Part shown: positions 2,646-56,582 of the stretch, in pieces
Layout of the letters: the number at the start of each line of letters is the position of its first letter
How positions within the stretch are numbered: position 1 is the first letter of the stretch
Assembly (NCBI GenBank): GCA_010093995.1
Contig: ML992502.1
Span: 2,172,541 to 2,236,540 of the forward strand
DNA from: Elsinoe ampelina
Lineage: Eukaryota
Direction: 5' to 3'
DNA: 64,000 nucleotides
Translations under genes and position numbers: made by a program
The notes under the pieces: model-generated
Seen by the model: only the letters and a program-made list of their open reading frames with translations
Told to the model about the DNA's origin: nothing
The model's database searches: none

Positions 2646-2753
2646 AATCTAGTTTAGTATCTAGTTTAGAATCTAGTTTAGAATCTAGTTTAGAATCTAG
2701 TTTAGCATCTAGTTTAGTATCTAGTTTAGAATCTAGTTTAGAATCTAGTTTAG
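2646..2753 (+). repeat. 9 x 12-bp tandem repeat (HATCTAGTTTAG) in the copia IN-RT linker
   Basis: Directly visible; in-frame unit, de-RIP reading approx. (N/H)PVQ. Confidence 0.9.
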
Positions 2754-32470: not shown

Positions 32471-33947
32471 TGTCAACCGAGGCATAAGCTGGAGCGCCAA
32501 GAAGACCCTGATTCAGTTCATCCCAAGGTTGAACTAAACACTATCTTACTATTTTACTAATCCATGATCAAATTGGATAATTATTGTCTTAATCTACTAC
32601 TATTAAGGAGTTCTTTTAATTTAGCTATCTTTTAGTATACTAGGTTAAGTATTTATATAGTTATAATCTATCTTATTTTAGTAGTTTAGGTAGTAATTAA
32701 TCCTTTTTCCTCCCCTACATAAGTTAATAGTTATAAGCCTAGTATAACTACCCCTATATAAGTACATTACTTAGTTGCTTTCCTACTCTATTTATTAGTT
32801 AATTCTCTACTATCTTGCTTTTTAAACATTAGAATCTATTAAGAACTGCCTTAACTATAACTATAGAATTTAGGTGTTAATAAAGGGATAAATAACTATA
32901 GATACTAACACCTTAATAGCTAGAACACCTATTATTCTTGCTATATTAGCTAAATAGGCTAGCTAGCTATATATTATTAAGATAAGAGCATTAAACACTA
33001 AGATATAGAACCTTATTAATCTCTAGAAGGCTAGTAAGCTAGAAGAGCTCTCTAAGCCTTAGAGGCTAGAGGTAGTAAATACTAACTTCTTAGTACTCTT
33101 CTAGATATATAAGGAGGAATAAGCATAATATAATAAATAGTATAAGGCCTTAGCTGATTTAGCTAGCCTTATTTAGTTATTAATTATACTATAAGTTCTT
33201 ACTATTATCTAACTAGAAGAGGATTCTTATTTATAGACTATCTTTAGAGCATTAAAGAACAGATTTGCTCTATCTAATATAGCTATTTAGCTCGAGGTTA
33301 AAGCACTTTAGAGGAAGTAGCTATCTAGCTCTTCCTTATAGAATATAGACTATTAGCTTTAGTAATAGAAAGAGGTTATAGATAAGGCTAGGAACTATAA
33401 TCTACTAGAAGCTTAAGGCTTAAGGCTATAGAGAGACTTCTTACTCTCTATCTTAAAGACTAAACTAGCATTTACTAATAAGTACCTTACTAATCTAGAT
33501 TTACTAACTCTACTAACTATACTTAAACCAATTACTAAGTTTAGACAGTTTTATAAACTCTATAAGCTATATAGCACTATAAAGGCTAGTAAGGGAGCTA
33601 CAGCCTTCTCTATAGCTACTAAGAATATTCTTTATAAGAAACCTAGTCTCTCTAGAGAGCCTAAATATATATACTAAGGCCGGTATAAGTAGATTAAGTA
33701 CTATTACTTAAATAAGCATCTAAGGCTAGAAGGATAGATACTAAACTAGTAGACTATAAAGGAAGTTAAACAAAGGCTAAATAATAAGACTCTTAAAAAG
33801 AGAATTAAGACTTCTATTACTAAGGAAGTATAACATTAGAAGGAGTTAACTCTACTAGTGTTAATTAATATAGCTATTACTATTAGATTATACTTAGTAT
33901 TTATTTTAGCTACTAGTAATATCTCTAACTTATAGATACTAGATTCT
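32471..33947 (+). mobile_element. Ty1/copia copy 2: 5' LTR (32471-32729), PBS and gag, interrupted in the protease codons by gypsy A
   Basis: LTR homologous to 4906-5164; 32731-33947 is collinear with 1-1217. Confidence 0.93.
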
Positions 33948-36900
33948 TATAACAAAGGTAGAATATTAGAGCTAGAAAGACAAGTATATAGGAGTAGAAT
34001 AGGTGTTATACTAGTGTACCCTCGATTGTTATAAGACTAATCTCTACTCTATCTATTCTATAGATAAGGAGTATTTTATTCTTCTACGGAGAATAGTATC
34101 TCTAGGGTAAGCTAGTATAGTATACTTACTATATTAGTTCTTATAATTATTCTTCCCCTTCGAGAGGCACACTCTTACGCCTATAAGCCTTAATAAAACC
34201 TAGAAAACCTAGTATAGGAGAAAACTAGGAAAGAGTGTCTCGCTAGTGTCTCTTAGGCATAGTATACTCTTTATATATATAGCGCGCCTATAATAGCCTA
34301 TAATATTCTTTATATACTAGATGTAGTAATAATAGTATAATTCTTTATATATAAAATATAGCGCTCTTATGTTATTATCTTTATATATAAGAATCTATCT
34401 ATTATTATATACTACTACTTATTATTCTCCGGATTAGTCTTAGCTTAGAGTTAGATATATATTCTTCTCTTCTTCTTCTCTTCTTCTTTTCTTCTTTATA
34501 ATACTTCCTTCGTATAAGTATTCTACTTAATACTAGCTCTATACTTATATAGGTCTAATACTATACTAGTAACCTATTTTAGGTACTATATAGTATAGAC
34601 TAGGTCTTACTAGCCTAAGGGCTAGTAGGGGAGGCTTAGCGTATATACTAAGCCTATACTACTATAGATCTAGCTATCGGGCTTATCTATTTAGTTGTTT
34701 GTTTACTAACCTAGTATAGCACCTACGTAGTAATTTTTTTTCTCTTTATTATTCTAGCTCTACGCTAGCTTACCTCCTATACGCTTATATACTTTAATAA
34801 CTATAGCCCCTAAAGTTCCTAAGGAGTAAGTATTATATATAGCACTTACGCTATACCGGCGCTAACCCTTTATAGACCTTATAAGAGCAATTTTACTAAC
34901 TAGGACTAGTACTCTATACTATACTTACGCTACGCTATTACTATTAATAAGTACCTTTAGCTTAAAGACAGTATACTCTCTATTAAGGATTCTCTCTACT
35001 AGATTACTAAGGCTAAGGCTACCCACTATAATTGTTATAGTTATAGTAATAAATACTACTACTAGGTATACTCTACACCTACACTATATCTACTTTATAC
35101 TAACCTTAGTAGCTTACTAAGCTTAACTCTAAGGATTAAGTTACTACTAAGAAGCTCTAGGACAAATACTTCGCTATATATATACTACTTTATAATAACG
35201 CTACTACTTCTAAAAAGGACATTATTCTCCTAAAGCGCTAGATTACTACCTATACTAACTATGTATATAAGAAGGCTAGCGCTAAGCGTATATAGAGTAA
35301 GTCTAATACTAAGGGCAAGGGCAAGGTAGTTGATAAGAGTAATAGTAATAGTATAACTTCTTTATGCTATAATAGCGCTATTACTACGCCCTCTACTCCT
35401 AAAGTTAATACTAAGTAGCTAGTAAAGGCGCTATGCCTAGGTATAATTAGTAACACTAGCTTTATACTTAAGGCTTTAGTTAATTATATAAGTCTAGAAG
35501 TGCGCCCCTATAATGCCTAAGCTATACTAACTTTCTTATAGATAGTTACTAAGAACAAGTAAGCCGCTACTATATAGGCGATTAATAATGCTATAAGGGC
35601 GCTAACTAGGTATATTAATAGTATTAAGGAGAATAATAAGAATAAGACTAAGGTAGATAATGTAGATAGTTAAGGTAGAGAGAGCTAGAGCACTATACCT
35701 ATACTATGCCCTCTTTACTTCGGTATAATTCTATAGTTTTCGCTACGCTAGCGTTCTCTCTATATAAGTTAATAATACTCTAAGCTAACCTAGCGCTACG
35801 CCTAGGTGCTCTTTACTTTAAAATTTGTACCTTTAACTTATTAATCCTAAGTATATCTAGAGTATTTAGCTAGTACTATACTTACGCTAAGCTACCTCGT
35901 ATTTATATAGTAATTCCTTAGCGTTTATAAGGTTTTTTACTAGCTCCTATATACTTTCTTCTATAGGGTAACTCTACTACTTTACTAGGTAGTATAGTGC
36001 CTTTAGAGTACTAGTATAGCTCTTACCGAGGATATATTTAATAATGTATTCTTCTTACTCTTCTACCTCTAGAGGTAGTAGGTATATACTCTTACTACGC
36101 CTATATAGCTCTAGTAGTGTAATATTAAAGACATTATAGATTAGCTTTATTTTGTCTAGTAAGTGTAGCTTATACACCTATATACTAATTTGTTATATAA
36201 TTATAAATAGGCTAATATACTTAGCTAATAGCTTATAGCTAGGTCTAGCGCTACGAAGGTTCTTAGTACTAAGTATAACCTTATTACTATTATAGAAGAC
36301 TTTTGCTTGTTAATCTCTATTATAGGCTAGTACTTAGTCTTTCTATACTTTATATAGGTGTTAGGTAAGCTCTACACGCGTTTTAGTAATAGATTATACT
36401 TAGTTATTAACTAATAGGTTATACGCTAGCGTATAGCTAGGTAGCGCTAGCGCCTTAATGTTATTAAGTAGGTATATCTCCTACGTAAATAAGAACTATA
36501 CTAGCGTAGCGTATAGTAACACTTAATACGTGTTATTATATACGAATTATGCCTACTTAACCTAGTATAGCTAGTCCGTCTAGTAATAGTTAATAAAGTA
36601 GCGTAGGTACTACTCTAGCGTCTAGTTTTGCCTTTCGGTTTAGCTATCTATCTATAGATAGAAACTAGTACTAAGCTTACATTACACCTTCTAGCGCTAG
36701 TATAGCACACTCTAGAATTTACTTATAAAGATAGACTCTCTATCTAAGACTAGTGTCTTTAGCGTTCCGAATAATATTATAATATCTATTTTAAATAGAT
36801 TAGTAAAGTTCCTTATATTAAGCTTAGTCGATATTAGTATATAGATACTAAACTTAGATAAGTAATAGATATATACAATAATCGTATCTATAACAATACT

Positions 36901-39900
36901 AGGCTAGAGCTCTACTAAAGGTAAGCTAGTAATAAAATTAAGCAACTAGTGTTATAAGGCCTTAAGTATAGGCAGGATTAGTAAGAGTTATAGAAGGCTA
37001 TAAGGCTTATACTATATTGCCTTATACCTTTAGTAGCTATTATAGCGCTTAATATACACTTTCGTAGCGACGGATATACCTAGCTACTAGTACTTCCTCC
37101 TTATATTAAGGTAGGTCTTTATATAGCTAAAGTAACTCCCTAAGGGATTATTATAATTATACTATATAAGCTTTACTCTTAAGGTAGTTTCTTCTAGGAT
37201 ATATACTCTATCTCCGTTCCGGAGTAAGCTATTACTAGATAGGCTCTACTTAGGGGTAGTACTATTACTAGTCGAGGTTCTCTCTTTTAGAAGTTTCTAT
37301 TTCTTACTATAAGTAAAGGTATCTCTTTACTATACTACGTAGATAAGGTCCCGGAGTAATATAGGAGTAGAAGAAATATATATAGTCTTATCCGCTAGTA
37401 CTTACGTAGTATAGAGGTATATAATCTACTAACTTTAGTCTAAAATTATAACGGGCTTCCTACTAGAGGTGTCCTAGAGTTACGTAGGTGTTATACTATC
37501 TTTATGCCCTTAGCTCTCTATTATTTTCTAGGCGAGTAGTAGTACGTCCTAGGATACTAGAGTAGGTATATATCGTCCTAATTTAACGTTACTAGTTAGG
37601 CTTAGAGGGAGATTTACGTAAGTACTCTCTAGGCACTACTCTTCTTACTCTAGAGGCTCTAACTCTTCTTAGTATAGCTATAGCGCTTCTAAGGTAATAG
37701 GTAGACTTATAGGTACTATTCTAGAGATATACTAGAATTATATAAGCGCGTTATATTAGGGAGTAGTTTAAGGTATATAAGCTATACTAGCTTTATTACT
37801 ATCTTCCTAGGCTCTACTAGCCTTAGGTTTCTTATCTATAATAGATATAGGTATAACTCCTTTGCTTCGTATTTATAACGCTTACTCTAAAAAGGGAACT
37901 AATATATAGCACTCTTCTTATATATCTTCTTTGTACTTATAGTAGTTAGGCCTACGTAATAGGCTATTAGCTAGGTTAGTCTTTCTACTATAGTGCTAGA
38001 TAACAATGTTAAACTACGCTAGTACCTTAGCGTAGTAGGCCTAGCGTTATAAAAGCTTCTTAGTAGTTAGGAAATACCTAAGGTTATTATAGTTAGAGAG
38101 AACTTTAATTAAGGTAGTAGCGCTAAGTAGGTACTAGTACTAGTACTACGCTACTTCTACGATAGTAAGAAGCTCTTTATTATAGGTAGTATAGTTTAGT
38201 TCTATACCTTATAGCTTCTAGGACTAGAACGCTATAGAGTACTAGTGTTATATAGGGGTATTATCTTTATTTTACTAGGAGATTACTCTAGAGAGTATAA
38301 AATCTAAAGTGTTAGTCTCGAGCTAGAGAGACTTACCTAATAAAAAGTAGTATAGTATAGGCACTTACGTAAAGGTAGCTTTAAGCCTATTAAAGGCCTA
38401 TACTATATTATTACTCTATAGAAATAGGCCTACTTACTTCCCTTAGACTAACTCTTATATAAGTATAGTTAGTAGTAGCGCTACGTAAGAGAAGCTCTTA
38501 ATAAATTAATAATAGAAATTAGTAAATCCGAGAAAGGTTTATAACTCCTTAAGGCTAGTAGAGGTAGGCTAGTTAGTAACGGCTTATACCTAGGGCTACT
38601 CTATTACGACACTATCGCTACTAACGACATAGCTTAGAAATACTACCTATATTACCTTAAAGATATACTTCTTTAGTTTTATATAGAGGCTATTCTTACG
38701 TAGGTAGTCTAGTACGCTTCTAATAGCCTAGCGATACTCTTACTTATCGCTAGTGTAGATTAGAATGTCGTCTAGGTATATAATATAGTAGTAGTCTACT
38801 AAGCTACTTAAGTACTAATATATATAAGTCTAGAACGTAGCTAGAGTATTAGTAAGGCTAAAAGGTATAATAGTATATTTAAAGTAGCTATAGTAATAGC
38901 GGAATACTATCTTCTATTTATTACTATACTAGATATATACTCTATAGTAGACATCTATAAGGTCTAGCTTACTAAATAAGTATACGCTCTTAATATAATT
39001 AAGCATCTCGGCAATTAGAGGCAAGAGGTAATAGTTCTTAATAGTAATATTGTTTAGCCTATAATAGTTAATATATAGACGTAGTAAACTATTCTTCTTT
39101 AGAACAAATAGGATAGAAGACTCTATAGGGCTAGTACTATACTAGAGTTAACTCGTTACTAAGCTATTATCTATATACTCTTAAAGTACCTAAAGCTCCT
39201 TTTTACTAAGGGGATAGATAGGTCCTTAGAGTAGCTATTTCTTCTCTTTAATATTAATAGAGTAAGTAAAATTATTACTTAGTAGTACTATTACTACGCT
39301 CTTATTAAAAACATCTATATAGTTATTAAGCTAGTATAGTAGAGTTAGGGCGCTAGGTTTGTCCCGGCATATATATACTAGATAGAGCTAGGCGTTAGGC
39401 TAATTTAGCTCCTAGGAGAAGGAGAGTATATCTAGAATTAACACCTATATAGCGCTAGTGTAATACCTCTATATACTAGCGCTCTACTAAATCTTAGAGT
39501 TGTAGGATAATAGCTATAGTAGGTCTAATATAAGATTATAACTAGTTACATTAACGCTTTTAAACTACTAGTGTAACGCCTACGTTATTTCTTCGCTGTC
39601 CTTAATAGTAAAGGCTAACTTAGTATATCTATAGGTAGTTAATTCGTATTTGTCTAAGCTATATACTTAGTATACTACTAGGGGGTCGATAGTAATATAA
39701 TAGTATATAGCAAAATACTAGCTAATAAAGTTACTATCGGCGCTACTATCTATTAGAGCTACCCCTTTAATAGGGCCTTTAGGTAGGTTAACTATAACAT
39801 CGGCGCAAATTTAGTATATATTCTATGTTATACTAGGGCTACTTAGGATTAGTAAACGTAAGGACACTATCTATTTCGAAGAGTTCTTCTAGAGATAGTT

Positions 39901-41239
39901 TAGCGCCTAATAGTCTAGGCTCTTATAGATGTTATAAGAGTAAGTAGCGCTAGGTTAGAGAGCTATAGGGGTAGCGTTAGCGCTACTCTACTAGTTCTTT
40001 TAGCCCTTATAGTTTTCGTTATAGTAAGGCCTTTTAGTAAAAGTATTAGTCTTCTCTCTAGTATTATACTTATACTACCCCTATATAGGGTTAGAGTAGC
40101 CCGGTAGGTTCTACTCTAAACAGGATAGATGTACTAGAAGTTCTGCCTTAATTAGGGGTAGGTTCCCCTAATAGAGTACTTCCGAGCGTAGCTCTAGCGT
40201 AGTATAGGTAATAAGCTATATATAGTAGACGTTGTTCGGGAGCGGCGCTATCTTAATATAGAACTTACAACTATTAAGAAACGTATAGAAATTAGTAATT
40301 AACTATTCTCTATACTAGCGTAACGTAAAGAACTTTACTATATAGCTATTACTATAGTTTTTAGAACTCTAGGCTTAGTCCTAAAGCTAGGACTATATTA
40401 GGCTCTATAAGGGTATAACGCTAGTGCTCTTAGTATATAAGTTCTAATTGTAGCTAAGCTAACCTTTTAAGTAGCTAGTAGCTATATAGCACTAAGTAAC
40501 TTCTTTAAAGTAGATATTCGGCACTATCTTAAAGATATTATTATATATATGTATAAATTCCTTAACTCTTGCTATAATAGTAGACTCTAAGGCCTCGGGG
40601 TAGTATAAGTTTAGTATATACTCTTTTACAATTTATAGGTTTATTAGGCAAATATCGTTAAGTTATATATTATTAAAACAACTACGTAGCACTAGCGCTA
40701 TAACTAGAAAGCGACTACTAAGTATATTCTTAAGCTAAGTAATATAAGTAAGAAGCGCTTTATATATAGTATTATTTCCCGTGTTAGCTATACTTCCTAT
40801 AGGAGCTATATTAGCGCAGTATAGTCTTAGCACTAGCTCTTCCCTAGCCTAGTAATCTTTAATAGGAGTTATCTCTAGAGTTATAGCTAATTCGGTAAAT
40901 GTCTTGCTAATAGCTAAGCTATTAGAGAGTTATCTATACTAGTACTACTCTAGTAGTAGTTAGTCGTTTCGCTAGCGCTAAGTATAGAGTGCTATCTTAT
41001 CTATATAGCTCTATCTAATAGAATATAAAAGAGATTAGAATTATAACAAAGATAGAATATTAAAGCTAGAAAGACAAGTGTATAGGAGTAGAATAGGTAT
41101 TATACTAGTATACCCTCGATTATTGTAAGACTAATCTCTACTCTATCTATTCTATAGGCGAGAAGTGTTTTATTTTTCTACGGAGAATAGTATCTCTAGA
41201 GTAAGCTAGCGTAGCGTACTTACTACGTTAGTCCTTATA
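33948..41239 (-). mobile_element. Ty3/gypsy chromovirus family A, copy A1 (RIP'd; 198-bp LTRs 33948-34145 and 41042-41239; flanks do not form a TSD)
   Basis: Reverse complement of 45787-53080; PPT complement at ~34150-34160; flanks ATTCT / CTTAC. Confidence 0.92.
34803..35673 (+). pseudogene. RIP'd antisense accessory gene of gypsy A (3 exons, ~257 aa, Cys-rich N-terminus, KGKGK, acidic tail)
   Basis: Exons 34803-34825, 34876-35065, 35113-35673; introns GTAAGT..GCTAAC..TAG and GTATAC..TACTAAC..TAG. Internal stops are all TAA/TAG, i.e. RIP-compatible. Confidence 0.7.
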
Positions 41240-44200
41240 CTTACTTACTTACTATAGCGAATAAAACCTCTATAGAGAAGAATAGGAAAGTTACTTAGGA
41301 ACTATAAAACGTTATAATTAAAATCGAAATATACATAGAAAAACGATTAATTAATATAGTAGATATATAGTATAATATAGTACTTAGTATAGACTAGCTT
41401 TAATAATATAATCTAGACATAGACTAGATTAAAGAAACACTTAAATTTCCTAAGTATAATTATAGGACGTAGGGAGTATAATTAGCTCTATAGATACTAA
41501 CTGCAAAGATAGTATAGGTATAACTAATAGTTAGAGCTATTACTAGCGTAAGTAATTAAGTACTTCTACTAGAATATAAAGACTTTAAGGATTTGTTCGA
41601 AGAAAGATAAGGTATTATAGCCTTACTCTAATATAAACTATAGAATTATAAAATACTCTTTAAAGAGAGTAAATCCCTAATATACTATTAAGGTCTTATA
41701 CTACTATTAAAACAAGAGAAGAACGTCCTTAAGAACTATATCGATAAGTACCTACTTAAAGGATTTATATAACTATTAAAATTACCTATTACGTACGGAG
41801 TGCTTTTTATACCTAAAAAGAATAGAATATTACAAATATATATTAATTACTAAAAACTTAATATACTTACTAGGAAGAATTACTATCCCCTACTAAGAAT
41901 TAACGAACTTTAAGACTAACTACTTAGAGCTAAATAGTTTACTATAATTAATATTAGAGATGCTTATTATTAAGTATAAATAAAGGAGAGCGAAGAGTAG
42001 AAAATAGCTTTTAGAACGTAATAGAGTCTATATAAGTACCTCGTTATACTCTTTAGGTTAACTAATACTCCTATAACCTTCTAAGAGTTAATTAATAATA
42101 CTCTATAAGAATACCTTAACAACTTTATCTTAGTATATTTAGACAATATTATTATCTTCTTAAAGATATATAACAAATATATAAGACATATTTATAAGGT
42201 GCTATAGAAACTAAAAGAAAAAGACTTACTAGTAAAGCTCTTTAAGTATAAGTTTTATAAACATAAGATACAATTTCTAAGCTATGTTATATCTACTAAT
42301 AGCATTAAACCTAATCCGAAGAAGATTAAGTTAGTAAATAACTAGCTAGAACCTACTATAGTTAAGGAGGTTTAAGCACTACTAGGATTCTTTAACTACT
42401 ATTATAAGTTTGTTAAAGGATTCTCTAAGGTAGCTATACTAATATCTAACTTTATAAAGAAAGAAACTAGCTTTGTCTTTAACAAAAAGTATAGGTAGGC
42501 CTTTAAGGAGCTAAAGCTTAGGCTTATAATAGTACCTATCTTAGCACTCTTCGACCTAGACTAGTAAGCGCTACTAGAAATAGATGCCTTAGACTTTATA
42601 ATAGAAGTATATCTAGCATAGAAGAACGTAGAAGAATAATACTACCTAATTATATACTACTTACGAAAAATAACTAGACCTAAACTTAACTACGATATAT
42701 ACGATAAGGAGTTACTTATAATTATAGAAGTATTCTGCGAGTAGAGAGTATATCTAGAAGAAACAACCTTACCTATATAAGTTTATACTAACTATAAGAA
42801 CCTATTATATTAGACAACAACTAAGGTTCTTAATAGATAATAGGTTTAATAGTTAGAAACACTTATAAGCTATAACTTTTAGATCTACTATATTAAGGGA
42901 TTAAAGAATAGTAAAGTAGATGCTCTTAGCTAATAACTAAATTACTTAAAGAATATAACAATAATAAAGGCCTCTATACTAAAGTAGTAAGATAGCGCTC
43001 TAGTCTATAAGTACCCGAAGGTAAAGCAGTTATATAGCCTTACCTAGGAGCTTACGTAAGAACAGAAGAAAGAAGTTATTTAAATATACTATAACGACCT
43101 AATAGTGGAATATAGCAGAATCAATAAGACTATTAAACTTATTATATAAAACTACCTATAGAAAGAACTCTAAAACAATATTAAGATATATATCGCTATA
43201 TATAATATATACTATAAGTCTAAGCACTTACGACATAAGCTATATAGGCTATTATAACTCTTACTACTACTAGATAAACTATAGTAATTAGTTATAATAG
43301 ACTTTATAGGACCTCTACTACTATTAGAAGAACCTCTTATAGGTGTAAAGTATAATAGTATCCTAGTCCTAGTAGATAGATTTATAAAATATTACTACTT
43401 TATACTATATAAGATAATAGCAACTACCAAGGATATAGCCTTTACCTTTCTCTAAACAATTGTTTCGCGATATAGAGTACTATAAGACTTAATAACTAAT
43501 AGGGATAAGCTATTTACATTATAATTCTAGTAATTATTTATAGACCTACTAGGAGTTAAATATAAGCTATTAACCTTCTTTTATTTATAAATAGATAGAT
43601 AAACTAAATAGGCAAATTAAGTACTAGAGTAGTACCTATACTACTACCTAAACTATAAGTAAGACTTATAGGTAATACTATTACTACTCGCGGAGCTCGC
43701 TATTAATAATAGAAAGTTAGCTAATAGAATTTTACTATTTTACACGAACTATAGAATATACTTAGATCTATACTATAACACACTCGGAATTAAGCTAATA
43801 TCTAAGGATACTAATATACTAGTAGCTAACATTAAGAAACTATATAACTAGCTATACTACGATATAGTATTTATATTATAAAGAATAGTAGAGTTTACTA
43901 ACTAGAAGAGAATTACAGGACTAATTCTATAGGAGGGGGAGAAAGTTTACCTCCTTAGTAGAAATATTAAAACGAAATAACTAAGTAAGAAACTTAACTA
44001 CACTAAACTAGGACTCTTTAAGATCCTAGAAAAGAAAAACAAGAACGTATATAAACTAGAACTACTAAGACATATAAGGATCTATCTAGTCTTTTATATA
44101 TTACTACTAGAGAAAGTACTATAGAATACTATACCTAGACCTATTAAACTAGATAAAGAAACATAGGAGCTATAGTATAAGATTAAAAGAGTTTTACATT

Positions 44201-45487
44201 ATAAATCTATAAGGGGAAAGCGTTACTATCTTATCCACTAGAAAGAACATTAGTATAGTAAGGTAATATAGGAACTAGAGAAACACCTTACCTCGTAAGT
44301 AATTCTAGATTACTAGACTAAAAACCTATCCTAAGTAAACTAACTAGGTAGGCCTAACGCTACTAATACTAAACAAAAATAAGAATACCTAAGAAAGACT
44401 ACTTAGCTAATAGAAGTACTCTAATTGTTGCTAAATAAGGAACTCTAATCGGAGTTAGATATAAATAATTACTAGTCCTATAGTAGGATAGGATCTACTA
44501 ATAATAGTATTTCCTCCTACTCTAAGATTTAAATATAAGTCTCCTCTAGAGAGATTACTTTCTCTACCTTGTCCTTTAACTTTTATATCTCTTTATATAG
44601 GCAAAGCTTATTGCCTATAGCTCTTTAATAAGCCTCTTTTACCTTTTTATAAGCTTCTTTAGCTTTCTTTTTAGCGGCCTTAGCTATAACTAATTCCTTT
44701 TATAAATAAATATACTTAGACTAGAGACGCTACTATTCTAATTTTATTACTTAAATATTATAACTTAAGTAGTTACTTACGATATACTAGCTATAAATAC
44801 CCGACCGAATATAGACTTTATAGTCTAGCCCTTTTAACTTATAATAAGAGTAAGCTTATAGCATATTAGTTCTAAATAACTTAATAAACTCTAAGAGGTT
44901 CTTTTATATAGATATACTAGATTTACTATACCTTTAACGACTAGGAGGCATATTTAGTATATAGCGTAGAAGAATAAGAAAGAATACTTACTTATTAGAA
45001 CAACTCGATTAAAAGAGGAGAGTAATATTATAAACTAGTAGAACAGCTAGAGCGTAGAGACGTTAGGACTAATTAAACTACTAAGGTTATTACGTAACTT
45101 AGCTCGACATTTACTTAATTCTCTATTGTCTCTAGCGGCTCTACCCTAGAGACTATAGAGCGTATAGGTTACTAGTGGATATATACTCTATATTACTCCT
45201 AACTCTCGCTATAGAGTATATAGAGTATATAGAGTATATAGTAAAGAATACATATATATAGAAATAGTCCTTACCTTATATAAGTACTATAGTTAACCTT
45301 GTCTAGATAGCGAACACTAGTATTACTAAGGCTAGCCTTTATAATACTATCTAATTATACTTTATTATCTATAAGACATACCTTCTCTAACTCTTACCTT
45401 AGTACTATACTACTATAGAAGTAGAACTACCTCGTTCTTAGCTTAGCTTAGACTACTAACGTAGGCTATATTAGATAGTTCGTAATA
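41240..45487 (+). mobile_element. Ty3/gypsy chromovirus family B, 5'-truncated (part of PR, RT, RH, IN, chromodomain, PPT, 462-bp 3' LTR 45026-45487)
   Basis: Degenerate YPLPRIDEL (~41881), KTAFRT, YLDDI (~42135), chromodomain ~44170-44290, PPT 45011-45022, LTR ends tattataaac...gttcgtaata. Confidence 0.9.
44403..44951 (-). pseudogene. RIP'd antisense accessory gene of gypsy B: Zn(II)2Cys6-like motif followed by a coiled coil (~182 aa; stop uncertain)
   Basis: Intact ATG at 44951; TAY codons (RIP'd TGY) at codons 34, 37, 44, 53, 56 and 64; E/K/A-rich helical segment follows. Confidence 0.65.
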
Positions 45488-45786
45488 CTACGCTATACCT
45501 CCTTTACTTCGGTATAATTCTATAGTTTTTACTACGCCGGCGTTCTTTCTATATAAGCTAATAATACCTCGAGCTAGTCTAGTACTACGCCTAGGTACTC
45601 TTTACTTTAAAATTTATACCTTTAACTTATTAATCCTAAGTATGTCTAGAGTGTTTAGCTAGTACTATACTTACGCTAAGCTACCTTATATTTATATAGT
45701 AATTCCTTAGCGTTTATAAGGTTTTTTACTAGCTCCTATATACTTTCTTCTATAGAGTAACTCTACTACTTTACTAGGTAGTGTAG

Positions 45787-48700
45787 TATAAGGACTAACG
45801 TAGTAAGTACGCTATACTAGCTTACCCTAGAGATACTATTCTCCGTAGAAGAATAAAACACTCCTCGCCTATAGAATAGATAGAGTAGAGATTAGTCTTA
45901 CGATAATTAAGAGTATACTAGTATAACACCTATTCTACTCCTATATACTTATCTTCCTAGCTCTAATATTCTACCTTTGTTATAATTCTAATCTCTCTTA
46001 TATCCTATCGGATAGAGCTATATAGACAAGATAGCACTCTATACTTAGCGCTAGCGAAACGACTAACTACTACTAGAGTAGCACTAGTATAGATAACTCT
46101 CTAATAGCTTAGCTATTAGTAAGACATTTACCGAATTAGCTATAACTCTAGAGATAACTTCTATTAAAGATCGCTAGGCTAGGGAAGAGCTAGCGCTAAG
46201 ACTATACTACGCTAATATAGCTCCTATAGAAAGTATAGCCGACACGGGAAATAATGCTATATATAAAGTACTTCTTGCTTATATTACTTAGCTTAAGAAT
46301 ATACTTAGTAGTTGCTTTCTAGTTATAGCGCTAGTACTACGTAGTTGTTTTAATAATATATAACTTAACGATATTTGTCTAATAAACCTACAAATTATAA
46401 GAGAGTATATACTAAACTTATACTACCTCGAGGCCTTAGAGTCTACTATTATAGCAAGAGTTAAGGAATTTATATATATATATAATAACATCTTTAAGAT
46501 AGTACTAAATATCTACTTTAAAGAAGTTACTTAGTGCTATATAGCTACTAGCTACTTAAAAGGTTAGCTTAGCTATAATTAAAACTCGTATACTAAGAGC
46601 GCTAGCGTTATACCCTTATAAAGCCTAATATAGTTCTAGCTTTAGGACTAAGCCTAGAGTCCTAAAAACTATAGTAATAGCTACGTAGTAAAGTTCTTTA
46701 CATCGCGCTAGTGTAGAGAATAGTTAATTACTAATTTCTATACGTTCCTTAATAGTTATAAGTTCTATATTAAGATAGTGCCGCTCCTAGATAATGTCTA
46801 CTATATATAGCTTATTACCTATACTACGCCGGAGCTACGCTTAGAAGTACTCTATTAAGGGAACCTACCTCTAATTAAGGTAGAACTTCTAGTATATCTA
46901 TTCTATTTAGAGTAGAACCTACCGGGCTACTTTAACTCTATATAGGAGTAGTATAAGTATAATGCCGGAGAGAAGACTAATACTTTTACTAAAAGGCCTT
47001 ACTATAATAAAGACTATAAGGGCTAAAAGGACTAGTAGAGTAGCGCTAACGCTACCTCTATAGCTCCCCGACCTAGTGCTACTTACTCTTATAATATCTA
47101 TAAGAGCCTAGACTATTAGGTGCTAAACTATCTCTAGAAGGACTTTTCGAAACGGATAGTGTTCTTACGTTTACTAATCCTAAGTAACTCTAGCGCGATA
47201 TAGGATATATACTAAATTTGTACTAACGTTATAGTTAACCTACCTAAAGGCCCTATCGAAGGGGTAGCTCTAATAGATAGTAGCGCCGATAGTAACTTTA
47301 TTAGCTAGCATTTTGCTATATGCTATTATATCGCTATCGACCCTCTAGTAGTATACTAAGTACGTAGCTTAGACAAATACGAATTAACTACCTATAGATA
47401 TATCGAGTTAGTCTTTACTATTAAGGATAGTAAAGAAACAACGTAGGCGTTACGCTAGCGGTTTAAAAGTGTTAATATAACTAGTTATAATCTTATATTA
47501 GGCCTACTATAGCTATTGTCCTATAACTCTAAGATTTAGTAGAGCGCTAGTATATAGAGGCATTATACTAGCGCTATATAGGTGTTAATCCTAGATGTAC
47601 TCTTCTTCTCCTAGGAGCTAAATTAGTCTAACGCTTAGCTCTATCTAGTATATATATACTAGGACAAACCCGGCGCCCTAACTCTACTATACTAGCTTAA
47701 TAACTATATAGATGTTTTTAATAAGAGTATAGTAATAGTACTACTAGGTAATAATTTTACTTACTCTATTAATATTAAAGAGAGAGAATAGCTACCCTAG
47801 GGACCTATCTACTCCCTTAGTAAGAAGGAGCTTTAGGTACTTTAAAAGTATATAGATAATAGCTTAGTAATAGGTTAACTCTAGTATAGTACTAGCTCTA
47901 CGAGGTCTTCTATTCTATTTATTCTAAAGAAGGATAGTTCGCTATGCCTATATATTAACTATTATAGGCTAAATAATGTTACTATTAAGAACTATTACCT
48001 CTTACCTCTAATTGCTAAGATGCTTAATTATATTAAGAATATATACTTATTTAGTAAGCTAGACCTTATAGATGTCTACTATAGGGTATATATCTAGTAT
48101 AGCGATAAATAGAAGATAGTATTCTATTATTACTATAGCTACTTTAAATATACTATTATACCTTTTAGCCTTACTAATGCCCTAGCTACGTTCTAGACTT
48201 ATATATATTAGTACTTAAGTAGCTTAGTAGACTACTACTATATTATATACCTAGATAATATTCTAATCTACGCTAGTAACAAGTAAGAGTATTACTAGGC
48301 TATTAGAAGCGTACTAAACTACCTACGTAAGAATAGCCTCTATATAAAACTAAAGAAGTATATCTTCGAGGTAATATAGGTAGTATTCCTAAGCTACGTT
48401 ATTAGTAGTAATAGCGTTATAATAGAGTAGCTCTAGGTATAAGCCGTCGCTAACTAGCCTACCTCTACTAGCCTTAAGGAGTTATAAACCTTTCTTGGAT
48501 TTGCTAATTTCTACTATTAATTTATTAAGAGCTTCTCCTATGTAGTACTACTACTAACTATACTTACGCGAGAGTTAGTCTAAGAGAAGTAAGTAGGCCT
48601 ATTTCTATAGAGTAACGATATAGTATAAGCCTTCGATAGGCTTAAAGCTACCTTTATATAAGCGCCTATACTATGCTACTTTTTATTAAGTAAGCCTCTC

Positions 48701-51700
48701 TAGCTCGAGACTAACGCTTTAGATTTTATACTTTCTAGAGTAATCTCCTAGTAAAATAAAGATAATACTCCTACGTAACACTAGTACTCTATAGCGTTCT
48801 AGTCCTAGAAGCTATAAGGTATAGAACTAAACTATACTACCTATAACAAAGAGCTTCTCGCTATTATAGAAGTAATATAGTACTAGCGCTAGTACTTACT
48901 TAGTACTACTACTCTAATTAAAGTCCTCTTTAACTATAATAACCTTAAGTATTTCCTAACTACTAAGAAGCTTTTATAATACTAGGCCTACTACGCTAAG
49001 GTACTAGCATAGTTTAATATTATTATCTAGTACTATAGTAGAAAGACTAACCTAGCTAATAGCCTATTATGTAGGCCTAACTACTATAAGCATAAAGAAG
49101 ATATATAGGAAGAGTACTATATATTAGTTTCTCTCTTAAAGTAAGTATTATAAACGTAAAGTAAAGAAGTTATACCTATATCTATTATAGACAAGGAACC
49201 TAAGGCTAGTAAGGCCCGAGAAGATAGTAATAAAGCTAGTATAGCTTATATGCCTTAAACTACTCTCTAACGTAATACGCTTATATAATTCTAGCGTACC
49301 TCTAGAATAGCGCCTATAAGTCTACCTATTACCTTAGAAGCGCTATAGCTATACTAAGAAGAGTTAGAGCCTCTAGAGTAAGAAGAGTAGTACTTAGAAA
49401 GCACTTACGTAAATCTCTCTCTAAGCCTAACTAATAATGTTAAATTAGAACAATATATATCTACTTTAGTATCCTAGGACATGCTACTACTTACCTAGGA
49501 AATAATAGAGAGCTAAGGGCATAAAGATAATATAACGCCTATATAACTCCGGGATACCTTTAGTAGAAAGCCCGCTATAATTTTAGACTAGAGTTAGTAG
49601 ATTATATACCTCTATACTATATAAGTACTAGCGGATAAGACTATATATATCTCTTCTACTCCTATATTACTCCGGGACCTTATCTACGTAATATAGTAAA
49701 GAGATACTTTTACTTATAGTAAGAAATAGAAACTTCTAAAAGAGAAAACTTTAACTAGTAATAGTACTACCTCTAAGTAGAGCCTATCTAGTAATAGCTT
49801 ACTCTAGAATAGAGATAGAGTATATATCCTAGAAGAAACTACCTTAAGAGTAGAGCTTATATAGTATAATTATAATAACTCCTTAGGGAGTTACTTTAGC
49901 TATATAAAGACTTACTTTAATATAAGGAGGAAGTACTAGTAGCTAGGTATATCTATCGCTACGAAAGTGTATATTAAGCGCTATAATAGCTACTAAAGGC
50001 ATAAGGCAATATAGTATAAGCCTTATAGCCTCCTATAACTCTTACTAATTCTACTTATACTTAAGGCCTTATAATACTAGTCGCTCGATTTTATTACTAG
50101 CTTACCCTTAGTAGAGCTTTAGCCTAGTATTATTATAGATACAATTATTATATATGTCTATTACTTATCTAAGTTTAGTATCTATACGCCGACGTTAACT
50201 AAGCTTCATACTAGGGACTTTACTAATCTATTTAAAATAGATATTATAACGTTATTTAGAACGCTAAAGATACTAGTCTTAGATAGAGAGTCTATCTTTA
50301 TAAGCAAATTCTAAAGTGCGCTATACTAGCGCTAGAAGGCGTAATATAAGCTTAGTACTATTTTCTATCTATAGATAGATAGCTAAACTAAAAGGCAAAA
50401 CTAGACGCTAGAGTAGTACCTACGCTACTTTATCGACTATTACTAGATAGACTAGCTATACTAGGTTAAGTAGGCGCAATTCGTATATAATAATACATAT
50501 TAAGTATTACTATATACTACGCTAGTGTAGTTCTTATTTACGTAGGAGATATACCTACCTAATAATATTAAGGCGCTAGTGCTACCTAGCTATACGCTAG
50601 TATATAACCTATTAGTTAATAACTAAGTATAATCTATTACCGAAACGCGCGTAGAGCTTGCCCGACACCTACGTAAAGTATAGAAAGACTAAGCGCTAGC
50701 CTATAATAGAGGTTAATAAGTAAAAGTCTTTTATAATAGCGACAAGGTTATACTTAGCACTAAGAACCTTTGTAGCGCTAGACCTAGCTATAAGCTATTA
50801 GCTAAGTATATTAGCCCGTTTATAATTGTATAACGAATTAGTATATAGGTGTATAAGCTACGCTTACTAGATAAAATAAAGCTAATCTATAACGTCTTTA
50901 ACGTTACGCTACTAGAGCTATATAGGCGTAGTAAGGGTATACACCTACTACCCCTAGAGGTAGAAGAGTAGGAAAAATATATTATTAAATATATTTTTAG
51001 TAAGAGCTATACTAGTACCTCGAAGGCGCTATACTACCTAGTAAAGTAGTAGAGTTACTCTATAGAAGAAAGTATATAGAAGCTAGTAAAAAACCTTATA
51101 AATGCTAAGGAATTGCTATACAAATATAAGGTAGCTTAGTATAAGTATAGCGCTAGCTAAACACTCTAGACACACTTAGGATTAATAAGTTAAAGGCACA
51201 AATTTTAAAGTAAAGAGTACCTAGGCGTAGCGCTAGATTAGCTCGGAGTATTATTAGCTTATATAGGGAGAACGCTAGCGTAGCAAAAACTATAGAATTA
51301 TACTAAAGCGAAAAGGGTATAGCATAGGTATAGCACTCTAGCTCTCTCTACCTTAACTATCTATATTATCTACTTTAGTCTTATTCTTATTATTCTCCTT
51401 AACACTATTAATATGCCTAGTTAGTGCCCTTATAGCATTATTAATCGCCTACGTAGTAGTAACTTACTTATTCTTAGTAACTACCTATAAGAAAGTTAGT
51501 ATAGCTTAGGCGTTATAGAGGCGCACTTCTAGACTTATATAATTAACTAAAGTCTTAAGCATAAAGCTAGTATTACTAATTATACCTAGGCGTAGCGCCT
51601 TTACTAGCTGCTTAGTATTAACTTTAGGGGCGGAGAGCGTAGTAATAGCGCTATTATAGCGTAAAGAAGTTATACTATTACTATTACTCTTATTAACTAC

Positions 51701-53080
51701 CTTACTCTTACCTTTAGCGTTAGACTTGCTCTATATATGCTTAGCGCTAGTCTTCTCGTATATATAGTTAGTATAGGTAGTAATCTAGCGCTTTAGAAGA
51801 ATAATGTCCTTCTTAGAAGTAATAGCGTCGTTATAGAGTAGTATATATATAGTAAAGTATTTGTCCTAGAGCTTCTTAGTAGTAACTTAATCCTTAGAGT
51901 TAAGCTTAGTAGGCTACTAAAGTTAGTATAAAGTAGACATAGCGTAGGCGTAGAGTATACCTAGTAGTAGTGTTTATTACTATAACTATAACAATTATAG
52001 TAGGTAGCCTTAGCCTTAGTAATCTAGTAGAGAGGATCTTTAATAGGGAGTATACTATCTTTAAGCTAGAGGTACTTATTAATAGCAATAGCGTAGCGTA
52101 AGCATAGTATAGAGTACTAGTCCTAGTTAGTAAAATTGCTCTTATAAGGTCTATAAAGAGTTAGCGCCGGCGTAGCGTAAGTACTATATATAATACTTAC
52201 TCCTTAGGAACTTTAGAGGCTATAGTTGTTAAAGTATATAAGCGTATAGAAGGTAAGCTAGCGTAGAGCTAGAATAATAAAGAGAAAAAAAAATTTACTA
52301 TATAGGTACTACGCTAGGTTAGTAAATAAACAACTAAATAGATAAGCCCGATAGCTAGATCTATAGTAGCGTAGGCTTAGTATATACACTAAGTCTCCCC
52401 TACTAGCCCTTAGGCTAGTAAGACCTAGTCTATACTATATAGCACCTAAAATAGGTTACTAGTATAGTGTTAGACCTACGTAAGTATAGAGCTAGCGTTA
52501 AGTAGAATACTTATATAAAGGAAGTATTATAAAGGAGAAAAGAAGAAGAGAAGGAAAAGAGAAAGATATATATCTAGCTCTAAGCTAAGACTAATCCGGA
52601 GAATAATAGGTAGTAGTATATAATAATAAATAGATTCTTATATATAAAAATAACAACGTAAGAGCGCTATATTCTATATATAAAGAATTATACTATTATT
52701 ACTATATCTAGTATACAAAGAATGTTATAGGCTACTATAGGTGTACTATATATACGAAAAGTACGCTACGCCTAAGAGGCGCTAGTAAGATGCTCTTTCC
52801 TAGTTTTCTCCTATACTAGGTTTTCTAGGTTTTATTAAGGCTTATAGACGTAAGAGCGTGCCTCTTAAAGGGGAAGAATAATTATAAGAACTAACGTAGT
52901 AAGTACGCTACGCTAGCTTACTCTAGAGATACTATTCTCTATAGAAGAATAAAACACTCCTTACCTATAGAATAGATAGAGTAGAGATTAGTCTTATAAT
53001 AATCGAGAGTATACTAGTATAACGCCTATTCTACTTCTATACACTTGTCTTCCTAGCTCTAATATTCTACCTTCGTTATA
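45787..53080 (+). mobile_element. Gypsy family A copy A3, full length (LTRs 45787-45984 and 52883-53080; TSD TGTAG/TATAG)
   Basis: Degenerate ALxDSGA (~47265), YLDDILIY (~48247), LETDAS (~48704), integrase, chromodomain ~50970-51120; PPT at ~52867-52878; 5-bp TSD with one RIP-type change. Confidence 0.93.
51353..52223 (-). pseudogene. Second copy of the gypsy A antisense intron-containing gene
   Basis: Same 871-bp span and splice signals as 34803-35673; retains TGC at the first Cys of the CxxC. Confidence 0.7.
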
Positions 53081-56000
53081 TATAGCGCCTTTAGAGTACT
53101 AGTATAGCCCTTACCGAGGATATGTTTAATAATATATTCTTGTTGCCCTTCTACCTCTAGAGGTAGTAGGTATATACCCTTACTACGCCTATATAGCTCT
53201 AGTAGTGTAATATTAAAGACGTTATAGATTAGCTTTATTTTATCTAGTAAGTATAGCTTATATACCTACGTACTAATTTGTTATATAATTATAAACGGGC
53301 TAATATACTTAGCTAATAGCTTATAGCTAGGTCTAGTGCTACGAAGGTTCTTAGTGCTAAGTATAACCTTGTCGCTATTATAGAAGACTTTTACTTATTA
53401 ATCTTTATTATAGACTAGCGCTTAGTCTTTCTATGCTTTATATAGGTGTTAGGCAAGCTCTATATACGTTTCGGTAATAGATTATACTTGGTTATTAACT
53501 AATAGGTTATACGCTAGCGTATAGCTAGGTAGCGCTAGTGCCTTAATATTATTAGGTAGGTGTATCTTCTATATAAATAAGAACTACGCTAGCGTAGTAT
53601 ATAGTAACGCTTAATACGTATTATTATATACAAATTACACCTACTTAACCTAGTATAGCTAGTCCGTCTAGTAATAGTTAATAAAGTAGCATAGATACTA
53701 CTCTAGCGTCTAGTTTTACCTTTTAGTTTAGCTATCTATCTATAGATAGAAACTAGTACTAAGCTTATATTATGCCTTCTAGCGCTAGTATAGCGCACTC
53801 TAGAATTTGCTTATAAAGATAGACTCTCTATCTAAGACTAGTATCTTTAGCGTTCTAAACAACGTTATAATATCTATTTTAAATAGATTAGTAAAGTCCC
53901 TAGCGTTAAGCTTAGTTAATATTAGTATATAGATACTAAACTTAGAAAAGCAATAGACATATATAATAATTATATCTATAATAACGCTAGGCCGGAGCTC
54001 TATCGAGGGTAAGCTAGTAATAAAATTAAGCGACTAGTATTATAAGGCCTCGAGTATAGGTAGGATTAGTAAGAGTTATAGAAGGCTATAAGGCTTATAC
54101 TACGTTGCCTTATACCTTTAGTAGCTGTTATAGCGCTTAATATATACTTTCGTAGCGACAGATATACCTAGCTACTAGTACTTCTTTCTTATATTAAGGT
54201 AGGTCTTTATATAGCTAAAGTAACTCCCTAAGGAGTTATTATAATTATGCTATATAAGCTCTACTCTTAAGGTAATTTCTTCTAGAATATATACCCTATC
54301 TCCGTTCCGGAGTAAGCTATTACTAGATAGGCTCTACTTAGGGATAGTACTATTACTAGTTAAGGTTCTCTCTTTTAGAAGTTTCTATTTCTTACTATAA
54401 GTAAAAGTATCTCTTTACTATACTATATAGATAAGGTCCCGGAGTAATATAGGAGTAGAAGAGATATATATAGTCTTATCTACTAGTACTTATATAGTAT
54501 AGAGGTATATAATCTACTAACTCTAGTCTAAAATTATAGCGGGCTTCTTACTAGAGGTGTTCTAGAGTTACGTAGGTGTTATACTATCTTTATGCTCTTA
54601 GCTCTCTATTATTTCCTAGGTAAGTAGTAGCACGTCCTAGGATACTAAAGTAGATATATATCGTTCTAATTTAACGTTACTAGTTAGGCTTAGAGAGAGA
54701 TTTACGTAAGTACTCTCTAAGCGCTACTCTTCTTACTCTAGAGACTCTAACTCTTCTTAGTATAGCTATAGCACTCCTAAGGTAATAGGTAGACTTATAA
54801 GTGCTATTCTAGAGACATACTAGAATTATATAAGCGCGTTATATTAGAGAGTAGTTTAAGGCATATAAGCTATACTAGCTTTATTACTGTCTTCCTAGGC
54901 CCTACTAGCCTTAGGTTTCTTATCTATAATAGATATAGGTATAACTCCTTTACTTCGTATTTATAATACTTACTCTAAGAGAGAGACTAACGTATAGCGC
55001 TTTTCTTATATATCTTCTTTATACTTATAGTAGTTAGGCCTACGTAATAGACTATTAGCTAGGTTAGTCTTCCTACTATAGTACTAGATAACAATGTTAA
55101 ACTACGCTAGTACCTCGGCGTAGTAGGCCTAGCGTTATAAAAGCTTCTTAGTAGTTAGGAAATACCTAAGGTTATTATAGTTAGAGAGGACTTTAATTAG
55201 AGTAGTAGCGCTAAGTAGGTACTAGCGCTAGTACTACGCTGCTTCTATAATAGTAAGAAGCTCTTTGTTATAGGTAGTGTAGTTTAGTTCTACACCTTAT
55301 AGCTTCTAGAACTAGAACGCTATAGAGTACTAGTATTACGTAGGAGTATTACTTTTGTTTTACTAGGAGATTACTCCGGAGAGTATAAAATCTAAAGTAT
55401 TAGTCTTAAGCTAAAGAGGCTTACCTAATAAAAAGTAGTATAGTATAGGCACTTACGTAAAGGTAGCTTTAAGTCTATTAAAGGCCTATACTATATTATT
55501 ACTCTATAGAAATAGGCCTACTTACTTCTCTTAGACTAACTCTTATATAAGTATAGTTAGTAGTAGCGCTACGTAGGAGAAGTCCTTAATAAATTAATAG
55601 TAGAAATTAGTAAATCTAAGAAAGATTTATAACTCCTTAAGGCTAGTAGAAGTAAGCTAGTTAGTAACAGCTTATACCTAGAGCTACTCTATTATAACGC
55701 TATTACTACTAACGATATAGCTTAGAAATACTACCTATATTGCCTCGAAGATATACTTCTTTAGTTTTATATAGAGGCTATTCTTATATAGGTAGTCTAG
55801 TATACTTCTAATAGCCTAGTAATACTCTTACTTATCGCTAGCGTAGATTAGAATGTTATTTAGGTATATAATATAGTAGTAGTCTACTAAGCTACTTAAG
55901 CACTAATATATATAAGTCTAGAACGTAGCTAGGGTATTAGTAAGGCTAAAAGGTATAATAGTATATTTAAAGTAGCTATAGTAATAGCGGAATACTGTCT

Positions 56001-56582
56001 TCTATTTATCGCTATGCTAGATATATATCCTATAGTAGGTATCTATAAGGTCTAGCTTACTAAATAAGTATATACCCTTAATATAATTAAGTATCTTAGC
56101 AATTAGGGGTAAGGGGTAATAGTTCTTAATAGTAACATTATTTAGCCTATAATAGTTAATATATAGACGTAGCGAACTATCCTTCTTAGGAACGAATAGG
56201 ATAGAAGACTCTATAGAGCTAGTACTATACTAGAGTTAACTTATTACTAAGCTATTATCTATATACTCTTAAAGTACCTAAAGCTCCTTCTTACCGAGGG
56301 AGTAGATAGGTCTCTAGAGTAGCTATTTTCTCTCTTTAATATTAATAGAGTAAGTAAAATTGTTACCTAGTAGTACTATTACTATACTCTTATTAAAAAC
56401 ATCTATGTAGTTATTAAGCTAGTATAGTAGAGTTAGAGCGCTAGGTTTATCCTAGTATACATATACTAGATAGAGCTAAGTATTAGGCTAATTTAGCTCC
56501 TAGAAGAAGAAGAGTACATCTAGGATTAACACCTATATAGCGCTAGTATAATGCCTTTATATACTAGCGCTCTACTAAATCT

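Follow-up and report, generated by a model that had tools for sequence, protein, structure and literature searches.

We describe here a small gene carried antisense within a gypsy-type retrotransposon, family B, in a 64,000-nucleotide stretch of Elsinoe ampelina contig ML992502.1 (positions 2,172,541 to 2,236,540; hereafter, the window). The minus-strand reading frame at 44403-44951 is, with a probability that we put at roughly 85%, a pseudogene, namely, a copy of a small accessory gene of this chromovirus family that was killed by repeat-induced point mutation (RIP). The frame runs for 183 codons from an ATG at 44951-44949 to a TAA at 44405-44403 and is broken by 19 in-frame stops (10 TAA, 9 TAG, and no TGA). 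Six TAY codons (Y being C or T) at 44760-44852 on the minus strand are spaced C-x2-C-x6-C-x8-C-x2-C-x7-C, and an A/K/E-rich segment follows (44502-44744, minus strand, limits approximate). A preliminary description of this DNA had reported the stop composition, the TAY pattern, the segment after it, and an ATG about 60 bp from the polypurine tract (PPT), and all of these are present in the window, with the ATG lying 59 nt from the purine tract at 45011-45022.

Homology carries this reading. An exhaustive phmmer search of 1.84 billion proteins, using the antisense frame with X at its stops and a threshold of E ≤ 1e-3, returned six homologues of 175 to 211 amino acids that align from their initial Met-Pro to nearly the end (best match, E 6.1e-12, 33% identity, query residues 10-149). 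In all six, Cys occupies exactly the six TAY sites; a seventh TAY within the window module corresponds to the His of C-K-V-H-[VI]-R-S-G, found in every homologue, and a TAG corresponds to a Trp that is likewise invariant among them. A hidden Markov model (HMM) of the family gave a 63-bit match covering 44936-44511 on the minus strand and detected nothing else relevant in the window. Among the 95 alignment columns in which at least four of the six homologues share a consensus residue, 40 are identical in the window and another 38 can be reached by C>T or G>A changes alone, making 78; RIP accounts for 38 of the 55 differing columns, all six Cys and the His among them. When the window codons were shuffled among columns 2,000 times, the count averaged 17.9 and never exceeded 32. 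The gene can be read through saturating RIP when TAY is taken as Cys or His and TAG as Trp, and the sequence reconstructed in this way in the preliminary description, including the His of KVHIRSG, was essentially correct, matching the intact homologues.

Two points weigh against this interpretation. The window holds a single family B copy, so the ancestral TGY codons are deduced from homologues rather than from sister copies. In addition, among the 40 of 650 differences from other copies that were listed, four fall within the open reading frame (ORF) (44459, 44528, 44671, and 44676) and none at the six codons. The window copy itself is unable to function, since its six Cys codons and its conserved His and Trp codons are mutated and 19 stops interrupt it, and the family B element as a whole is dead in the window, like its antisense gene.

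Taken alone, the internal statistics of the antisense frame are not above chance; it is homology that lifts the frame above that level. All six frames of 44403-44951 contain 10.4 to 12.1% stops without a single TGA, which makes the restriction to TAA and TAG uninformative about the antisense frame, and TAY makes up 7.1 to 10.4% of codons in each frame, in keeping with the earlier caution that such codons are common in RIP-mutated DNA. Written with Y or C, the Gal4 consensus occurs five times in the 32-kb AT-rich block, and Markov simulations yielded 1.1 to 1.7 such TAY patterns per 32 kb, with at least one in 64 to 80% of simulated sequences. Codon-position composition of the frame is weakly periodic (chi-square p 0.076 versus 0.001 to 0.02 for pol windows). 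Pfam scans of six-frame read-throughs of the family B and family A intervals gave nothing beyond pol, and a word-indexed protein search with the RIP-mutated query found no relative. The idea that the TAY codons fell into this arrangement by chance in a noncoding 3' spacer of a RIP-mutated element, which the uniform stop content, the simulated pattern frequencies, and the blank Pfam and word-indexed searches would all accommodate, has a negligible probability in the face of full-length homologues with Cys at all six sites, the 63-bit HMM match, and a column count more than twice the highest obtained by shuffling.

The homologues belong to a broad family. Profile searches gathered 51 clusters with a 6-sequence profile and then 234 with a 50-sequence profile, so that the family comprises at least 234 clusters at 90% identity. 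Judging from the 51 matches and from 120 of the 234 that were listed, almost all are unnamed or "hypothetical," and none has a precomputed Pfam domain. Named members come from the Ascomycota Lithohypha guttulata, Aulographum hederae, Hortaea werneckii (seen on 16 contigs), Sporormia fimetaria, and Bathelium mastoideum, and two are labeled "Zn(2)-C6 fungal-type domain-containing protein" in UniRef. The nearest ESM Atlas clusters, with 62 to 140 members, are eukaryotic, most commonly from Ascomycota, and share no Pfam family. As an aside, some members (P0081, P0084, P0087, P0126, P0138, P0143, and P0165) bear automatic JGI names such as galactokinase, chromosome segregation ATPase, AcrA, or YdcH; on proteins of about 150 to 210 amino acids that offer no support for them, such names look like annotation errors.

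The surroundings of intact members were taken from a metagenome scan that supplied 28 loci (L001-L028). Many lie on contigs of 5.3 to 7.3 kb whose terminal repeats of 123 to 174 nt are 99 to 100% identical, which looks like circular assembly of one long terminal repeat (LTR) plus the internal region. An uninterrupted ORF of 152 to 213 amino acids, beginning with Met-Pro or in a few cases Met-Ser, is present in 26 of the 28. By script, 17 of the 28 have an opposite-strand ORF of at least 250 amino acids whose stop falls in the range from 9 nt beyond the small-ORF 3' end to 185 nt inside it, and inspection showed the same tail-to-tail layout in L010 and L024; seven contigs are too short for the layout to be judged, and L006 and L007 are without pol. 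All nine opposite-strand ORFs scanned encode protease, reverse transcriptase (RT), RNase H, integrase, SH3, and chromodomain in that order, and all three upstream ORFs scanned encode gag with a CCHC knuckle. At nearly every locus, the small-ORF ATG is preceded by a purine tract and the LTR start TGTTAC, both in reverse complement, and lies 47 to 118 nt from the PPT/LTR edge. Because the tail-to-tail pol, the gag upstream, and the PPT/LTR beside the ATG recur in this way, gag-pol, a reversed small gene, and PPT-LTR constitute the constant architecture of a whole lineage that includes family B.

The window element fits this plan. Its RIP-degraded pol (41248-44295, plus strand; Pfam RVT_1, RT_RNaseH, and SH3_Tf2-1) covers the RT, RNase H, integrase, SH3, and chromodomain region and aligns to residues 136-1151 of the 1,165-residue pol of L004 with 46% identity over 1,017 amino acids, compared with 29 to 33% for the pols of other loci. 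The element is truncated at its 5' end, with gag and about 135 pol codons gone. The L004 Chromo domain occupies residues 1112-1162, near the end of this alignment, and the Pfam Chromo model found no match in the RIP-mutated window pol. Window domains and the L004 alignment together give the order protease-RT-RNase H-integrase with a C-terminal chromodomain, making the host element a chromovirus. Beyond the end of pol at 44295 come the antisense ORF (44951-44403), the plus-strand PPT (45011-45022), and the plus-strand 3' LTR (45026-45487); homologues and architecture thus bear out the earlier view that an antisense gene occupies the interval from pol to the PPT/3' LTR and faces away from the LTR. 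The purine tract and LTR start are conserved in relatives. Contigs of other copies begin at 45026, where the joint carries TGTTACG, the state of 45026-45032 before RIP, and TGTTAC is common both to the relatives and to less-mutated family B copies. This start is well supported, and the family A fragment starting at 45488 may have cut off the LTR end.

Family B is very abundant among read contigs (12,708 and 7,692 contig pieces), in which the differences are mostly RIP-type transitions, and contig depth over the ORF interval continues at the pol level. Two side observations concern copy structure. Summed contig depth rises about five-fold over the distal LTR (approximately 330,000 at 45220-45487 versus approximately 60,000), either because solo LTRs far outnumber full copies or because this stretch is common to another repeat. 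Some family B copies seem to have lost internal sequence, as joints link 42155 or 42292 to 45033.

These data also address whether the small ORF might be a host gene, or a piece of another element, that merely adjoins family B. Such an origin would suit the homologue at L006/L007, which has no pol within 10 kb on either side, as well as the family A insertions that flank family B on both sides. We nevertheless consider it very improbable, given that the order of pol, reversed small ORF, PPT, and LTR recurs in the metagenome loci, that read depth runs through the interval at the pol level, and that the window PPT and LTR start are at their canonical places. The constancy of the association is tempered by two results. 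Across nine elements (L004-L028) with both the small ORF and a full pol, pairwise identities of the two are uncorrelated (Spearman 0.05), which suggests exchange of 3' modules between lineages or very uneven rates. The intact 175-amino-acid homologue P0006 (L007:9965-10492 and L006:5087-5614), found on five contigs of which the longest is 1.1 Mb, has no pol homology across 20.5 kb in L007 or 12.3 kb in L006. In L007 it lies between AT-rich, RIP-like stretches (TpA/ApT 2.25 and 1.79), its own 2-kb bin having a GC content of 0.51, and it may be a retained or domesticated copy. Individual pairs illustrate the scatter in identities: L018 and L023 share 50% in pol and 66% in the ORF, and L005 and L027 share 67% and 36%, respectively.

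Several loci have long stop-free stretches on the sense strand over the small-ORF region, and every frame was therefore tested for coding. The small-ORF frame has no stops in any of 23 unique copies, whereas the other five frames contain 69 to 246 stops in total and are each open in at most one copy. The ratio of nonsynonymous to synonymous substitution (dN/dS) in the small-ORF frame is 0.03 to 0.18 in all 18 usable pairs (median, 0.106). In all eight pairs compared across frames it is lowest in the small-ORF frame, with values of 0.07 to 0.38 in the mirror frame and 0.95 to 7.7 in the rest. With 26 of 28 loci uninterrupted, dN/dS in this low range, and a sole open frame in 23 of 23 copies, the small ORF of the relatives is a protein-coding gene under purifying selection. 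In principle, the open antisense frame could be the shadow of sense-strand coding, whether by a pol extended at its C terminus or by a third sense-oriented ORF; this would explain why many loci have stop-free sense stretches of 120 to 300 codons over this region and why the mirror frame, with its common third positions, has a fairly low dN/dS. This explanation has very little chance of being right: the mirror frame is open in only 1 of the 23 copies, selection is strongest in the small-ORF frame in every pair compared, pol either stops short of the small-ORF 3' end or overlaps it by no more than 185 nt, and the protein has a conserved Cys6 motif and a confident structural model.

The encoded protein consists of an N-terminal helix, a Cys6 module, a helix of about 80 residues predicted to pair, and a short C-terminal LSP.TW...FW motif. 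Across an alignment of 50 sequences, a single one of the six Cys never varies, and each of the remaining five is retained in at least 90% of members; basic residues lie between the second and third Cys, and V-H-x-R-S-G, V-T-x-x-E-[WF]-x-R-L, an acidic A-E-E-A-I-A-V-E-E, and a C-terminal L-S-P-x-T-W...F-W are also conserved. AlphaFold2 run on this alignment (mean predicted local distance difference test [pLDDT] score, 82.4) modeled a helix at residues 17-31, two short helices (40-45 and 59-64; pLDDT 85 to 93) within a Cys domain that spans about 38-70, a long helix at 75-156 (pLDDT 96 to 98), and a low-confidence tail. The A/K/E-rich segment of the window aligns with this long helix (residues 75-156 of P0001). 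Modeling the Cys domain alone with 21 sequences gave a pLDDT of 64.8, so the full-length model was the better one. When two copies and four zinc ions were modeled together, the interface score ipSAE was 0.48 versus 0.00 for the best of three controls; the mark used for this score was reached by 21 of 30 proteins whose solved structures are pairs of one chain and by none of 23 whose solved structures are single chains (17 of 29 versus 0 of 30 among eukaryotic proteins). Runs had at least 87% of contacts in common, with a pLDDT of at least 81, and contacts paired residue i with approximately 215-i, predicting an antiparallel coiled coil. The model supports binding between two copies without showing it, and the coiled coil that the preliminary description had placed after the Cys domain reappears here as a predicted pairing helix.

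Whether the head is a Zn(II)2Cys6 domain, as first proposed, is answered in part. Its pattern of C-x2-C-x6/7-C-x8-C-x2-C-x6-8-C, seen in 26 of the 28 loci (the exceptions being L026, which is mutated, and L028, in which the second spacer is longer), conforms to the Zn2Cys6 spacing C-x2-C-x6-C-x5-12-C-x2-C-x6-8-C. With both the full-length and domain models, the top Foldseek rows against PDB were Pho7, Hap1, Gal4, Put3, Leu3, Cep3, Ppr1, AlcR, and Lac9, with root-mean-square deviations of 2.4 to 4.6 Å over 29 to 42 columns (Pho7, Gal4, and Lac9). Against the Pfam Zn_clus model PF00172, 11 of 50 members matched at E ≤ 1 (best E, 0.0071; P0004, 12.1 bits; P0005, 11.2 bits), and the window frames gave no match. 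The spacing is thus that of the class, the Pfam threshold is missed, and the fold matches are suggestive but nonsignificant, for which reasons we call the head "Zn2Cys6-like." A wide VIA-align search returned only generic long coiled coils (Z 7.0 to 7.6) and was uninformative.

The 59-nt spacer between PPT and ATG (44952-45010, read on the minus strand) is the window equivalent of a structured region in relatives. Beside the PPT, 19 of 21 unique relatives have a hairpin or dyad with a stem of 5 to 9 bp and a TCC(T/C) loop, found by a stem search run on each sequence separately; in these 19 it starts 21 to 26 nt after a TAACA motif, and in L001-L028 it occupies the region 20 to 45 nt inside the LTR edge. 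Pairing survives many two-sided changes, the second pair from the loop being CG in 12 sequences, TA in 5, AT in 2, and GC and TG in 1 each. RNAalifold predicted no pairs here, because loops of 3 and 4 nt shift the arms out of register. Stems vary among relatives and are not CGG repeats, and in the RIP-mutated window copy the hairpin is unrecognizable (equivalent positions, approximately 44975-45005). One possibility is that this element forms an RNA or DNA structure linked to the use of the PPT; another is that a dimeric protein binds it. TATA-like motifs between the hairpin and the ATG give only a hint of an antisense promoter. Of the sequencing runs listed as containing the stretch, none is recorded as RNA, and two runs presumed to be RNA each yielded one short, dissimilar piece, a result that is silent on expression. 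Since only 47 to 118 nt separate the LTR edge from the ATG, the promoter would have to lie in the spacer and adjoining LTR, with the antisense transcript arising at the 3' end of the element; the counterpart of the spacer is likely the core promoter and 5' untranslated region of the antisense gene.

On these grounds, we tentatively propose, at somewhat worse than even odds, that the protein is a zinc-binding, dimeric, nucleic acid-binding regulator that is made from an antisense transcript and acts on its own LTR-proximal DNA. A transcript starting in or next to the 3' LTR would give rise to the small protein, which would bind zinc, dimerize, and act on LTR-proximal DNA near the dyad beside the PPT. 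The effect might be an adjusted level of element transcription or a weakening of host silencing, following the logic of the HBZ protein of human T-cell leukemia virus type 1 (HTLV-1). Several results count against this functional proposal. No family member reached the PF00172 gathering score of 21 bits; the top Foldseek rows had E values of 0.27 to 8, none of them significant; VIA-align Z scores were only 2.1 to 2.8 for Hap1 and Put3; and the family profile matched PDB sequences at E 0.15 (Leu3) and 0.84 (Lac9). Furthermore, an antiparallel dimer would hold the two Cys domains about 80 helical residues apart. The earlier Zn(II)2Cys6 assignment thus finds support in the Cys spacing and in the nearest solved folds, but the profile cut-off is missed, the fold matches lack significance, and the dimer is modeled as antiparallel.

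The main rival reading, a real antisense gene with a nontranscriptional role (RNA binding, particle assembly, nuclear import, integration targeting, or a decoy against silencing proteins), is also quite possible, albeit clearly short of an even chance. The missed Zn_clus threshold and nonsignificant fold matches would then be expected, as would a modeled antiparallel dimer unlike those of Gal4-type factors; the C-terminal LSP.TW...FW looks like a short docking peptide; and PMC7264820 states, in the passages concerned, that antisense ORFs at this position have as yet no assigned function. What speaks against it, by pointing to a Gal4-like head, is the six-Cys spacing with basic residues between the second and third Cys, together with the absence of anything but Zn2Cys6 DNA-binding domains from the top rows of both fold searches.

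In a more specific version of the regulator proposal, which we consider unlikely, a lineage of ascomycete chromoviruses would encode its own Gal4-like zinc cluster regulator antisense, with expression from the 3' LTR edge. Two antiparallel chains would form a rod carrying a DNA-binding head at either end, which would bind the PPT-side dyad or the two LTRs and either switch transcription or shield the element from heterochromatin- or RIP-type silencing, as a fungal counterpart of HBZ. If this were true, retrotransposons would carry the fungus-specific Zn2Cys6 fold and might even act as its source or sink, and the intact, pol-less copy at L006/L007 might represent domestication in progress.

Family B sits in a densely nested repeat landscape. 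The window is fungal DNA with a GC-rich gene block at approximately 5.2 to 32.4 kb (GC, 0.49 to 0.58) between AT-rich blocks (GC, 0.27 to 0.36) that have strong RIP signatures; TpA/ApT and (CpA+TpG)/(ApC+GpT) are 1.87 and 0.17 in family B versus 0.57 and 1.25 in the gene block. A repeat map was built from self-comparison and Pfam scans of read-through frames. A copia element (RVT_2) occupies the left edge (1-5162), and the 5' part of a second copia copy (32471-33947) opens the right-hand AT block; their internal regions are 91% identical, as opposed to only 76% for the LTR pair 4906-5162 and 32471-32727. Gypsy family A copy 1 (33947-41243, minus strand) is followed by family B (41244-45487, plus strand) and then by family A copy 3, which is in pieces (45488-45787, 53081-56584, and 62770-64000) owing to the insertion of family A copy 2 (45787-53080, plus strand) and of gypsy element C (56583-62774, minus strand; LTRs at 56583-56786 and 62571-62774), both nested inside it. 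Family A copies 1 and 2 are 91% identical, and of the 631 differences between them, 620 are transitions. A gene for a family 2 carbohydrate esterase (CE2_N, E 1.4e-15; approximately 31500-32400, minus strand) ends at the border of the RIP block.

The preliminary description had also suggested that two different chromovirus families in this window share an antisense module. This has not been borne out, since the family HMM was blank in the three family A copies and in element C and the sole Y/C-rich pattern of family A is on the sense strand (51673-51765 and 35353-35267); the negative covers homologues of the family B gene, a nonhomologous antisense ORF being outside its scope. The family A interval from chromodomain to 3' LTR is unusually long, about 1.7 kb (51150-52883 in copy 2 and 34149-35880 in copy 1), and none of its frames matched a Pfam model. 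Reversing RIP in family A with the help of its two to three window copies was uninformative because the copies share most mutations, and after partial correction the pol frame still had 8 to 15 stops per 500 nt in most bins.

Among known proteins, Gal4-type zinc cluster factors offer the closest structural comparison. Their clusters, in which two short helices each open with C-x2-C, bind two zinc ions and DNA, classically at CGG triplets, and many members, though not all, dimerize through a parallel coiled coil just after a short linker. The family shares with Gal4, Put3, Hap1, Leu3, Pho7, and Ppr1 the six-Cys spacing, the basic residues, and, in its model, a dimerizing helix after the head; these factors are its nearest solved folds, and its named members are all fungal. 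It differs in falling below the Pfam threshold, in having an extra N-terminal helix and a helix of about 80 residues modeled as antiparallel, in lacking the regulatory middle-homology region, and in being borne by a retrotransposon rather than being a host gene. A functional analogy may be drawn with HTLV-1 HBZ, a bZIP protein whose gene lies antisense and whose transcript comes from the 3' LTR. The proposed fungal protein would resemble it as a retroelement-encoded, coiled-coil, transcription factor-like product read antisense from the 3' end; however, HBZ is unrelated in fold and host, and antisense transcription of the fungal gene is a prediction.

The nearest parallel in position is brtn, a gene that Boty-like Ty3/gypsy elements carry antisense in Botrytis cinerea and Sclerotinia (Zhao et al. 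2011, Virology 417:248, as cited in PMC8365987, PMC7264820, PMC4227169, and PMC5987419). The citing passages place it antisense in the interval from pol to the 3' LTR, give it no assigned function, and mention neither a zinc cluster nor a coiled coil. Both genes are thus antisense between pol and the 3' LTR of chromodomain-bearing fungal gypsy elements, a likeness of position and orientation. No BRTN name or Botrytis source appeared among the 51 matches or the 120 of 234 listed; brtn may be a member of the same family. In plants, antisense ORFs between pol and the 3' LTR of Grande1, RIRE2, Retand, and PvRetro13, as far as the relevant passages of PMC7264820 describe them, have the same position and orientation and are conserved within families, again with no function assigned; they belong mostly to nonchromovirus lineages, and nothing in the present analysis suggests sequence similarity between them and the family B gene. 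A figure legend in Novikova et al. 2010 (PMC2864245) marks an "additional ORF with unknown function" in some fungal elements. Our literature search found no description of a zinc cluster or coiled-coil protein encoded antisense in a fungal retrotransposon, a point on which Additional file 1 of Novikova et al. 2010 may bear.

An antisense accessory gene of an LTR retrotransposon is therefore a known kind of thing. What appears to be new is the protein family described here, together with its breadth, Zn2Cys6-like head, and dimer model. To the antisense accessory genes already known from plants and from Boty, none of which has an assigned function, this work adds a family of at least 234 clusters with clear signs of selection, a confident structural model, a concrete biochemical hypothesis in the form of a zinc cluster head on a dimerizing rod, and a candidate cis element. 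The role of retrotransposon antisense ORFs thereby becomes testable in fungi that carry intact copies, such as Hortaea werneckii.

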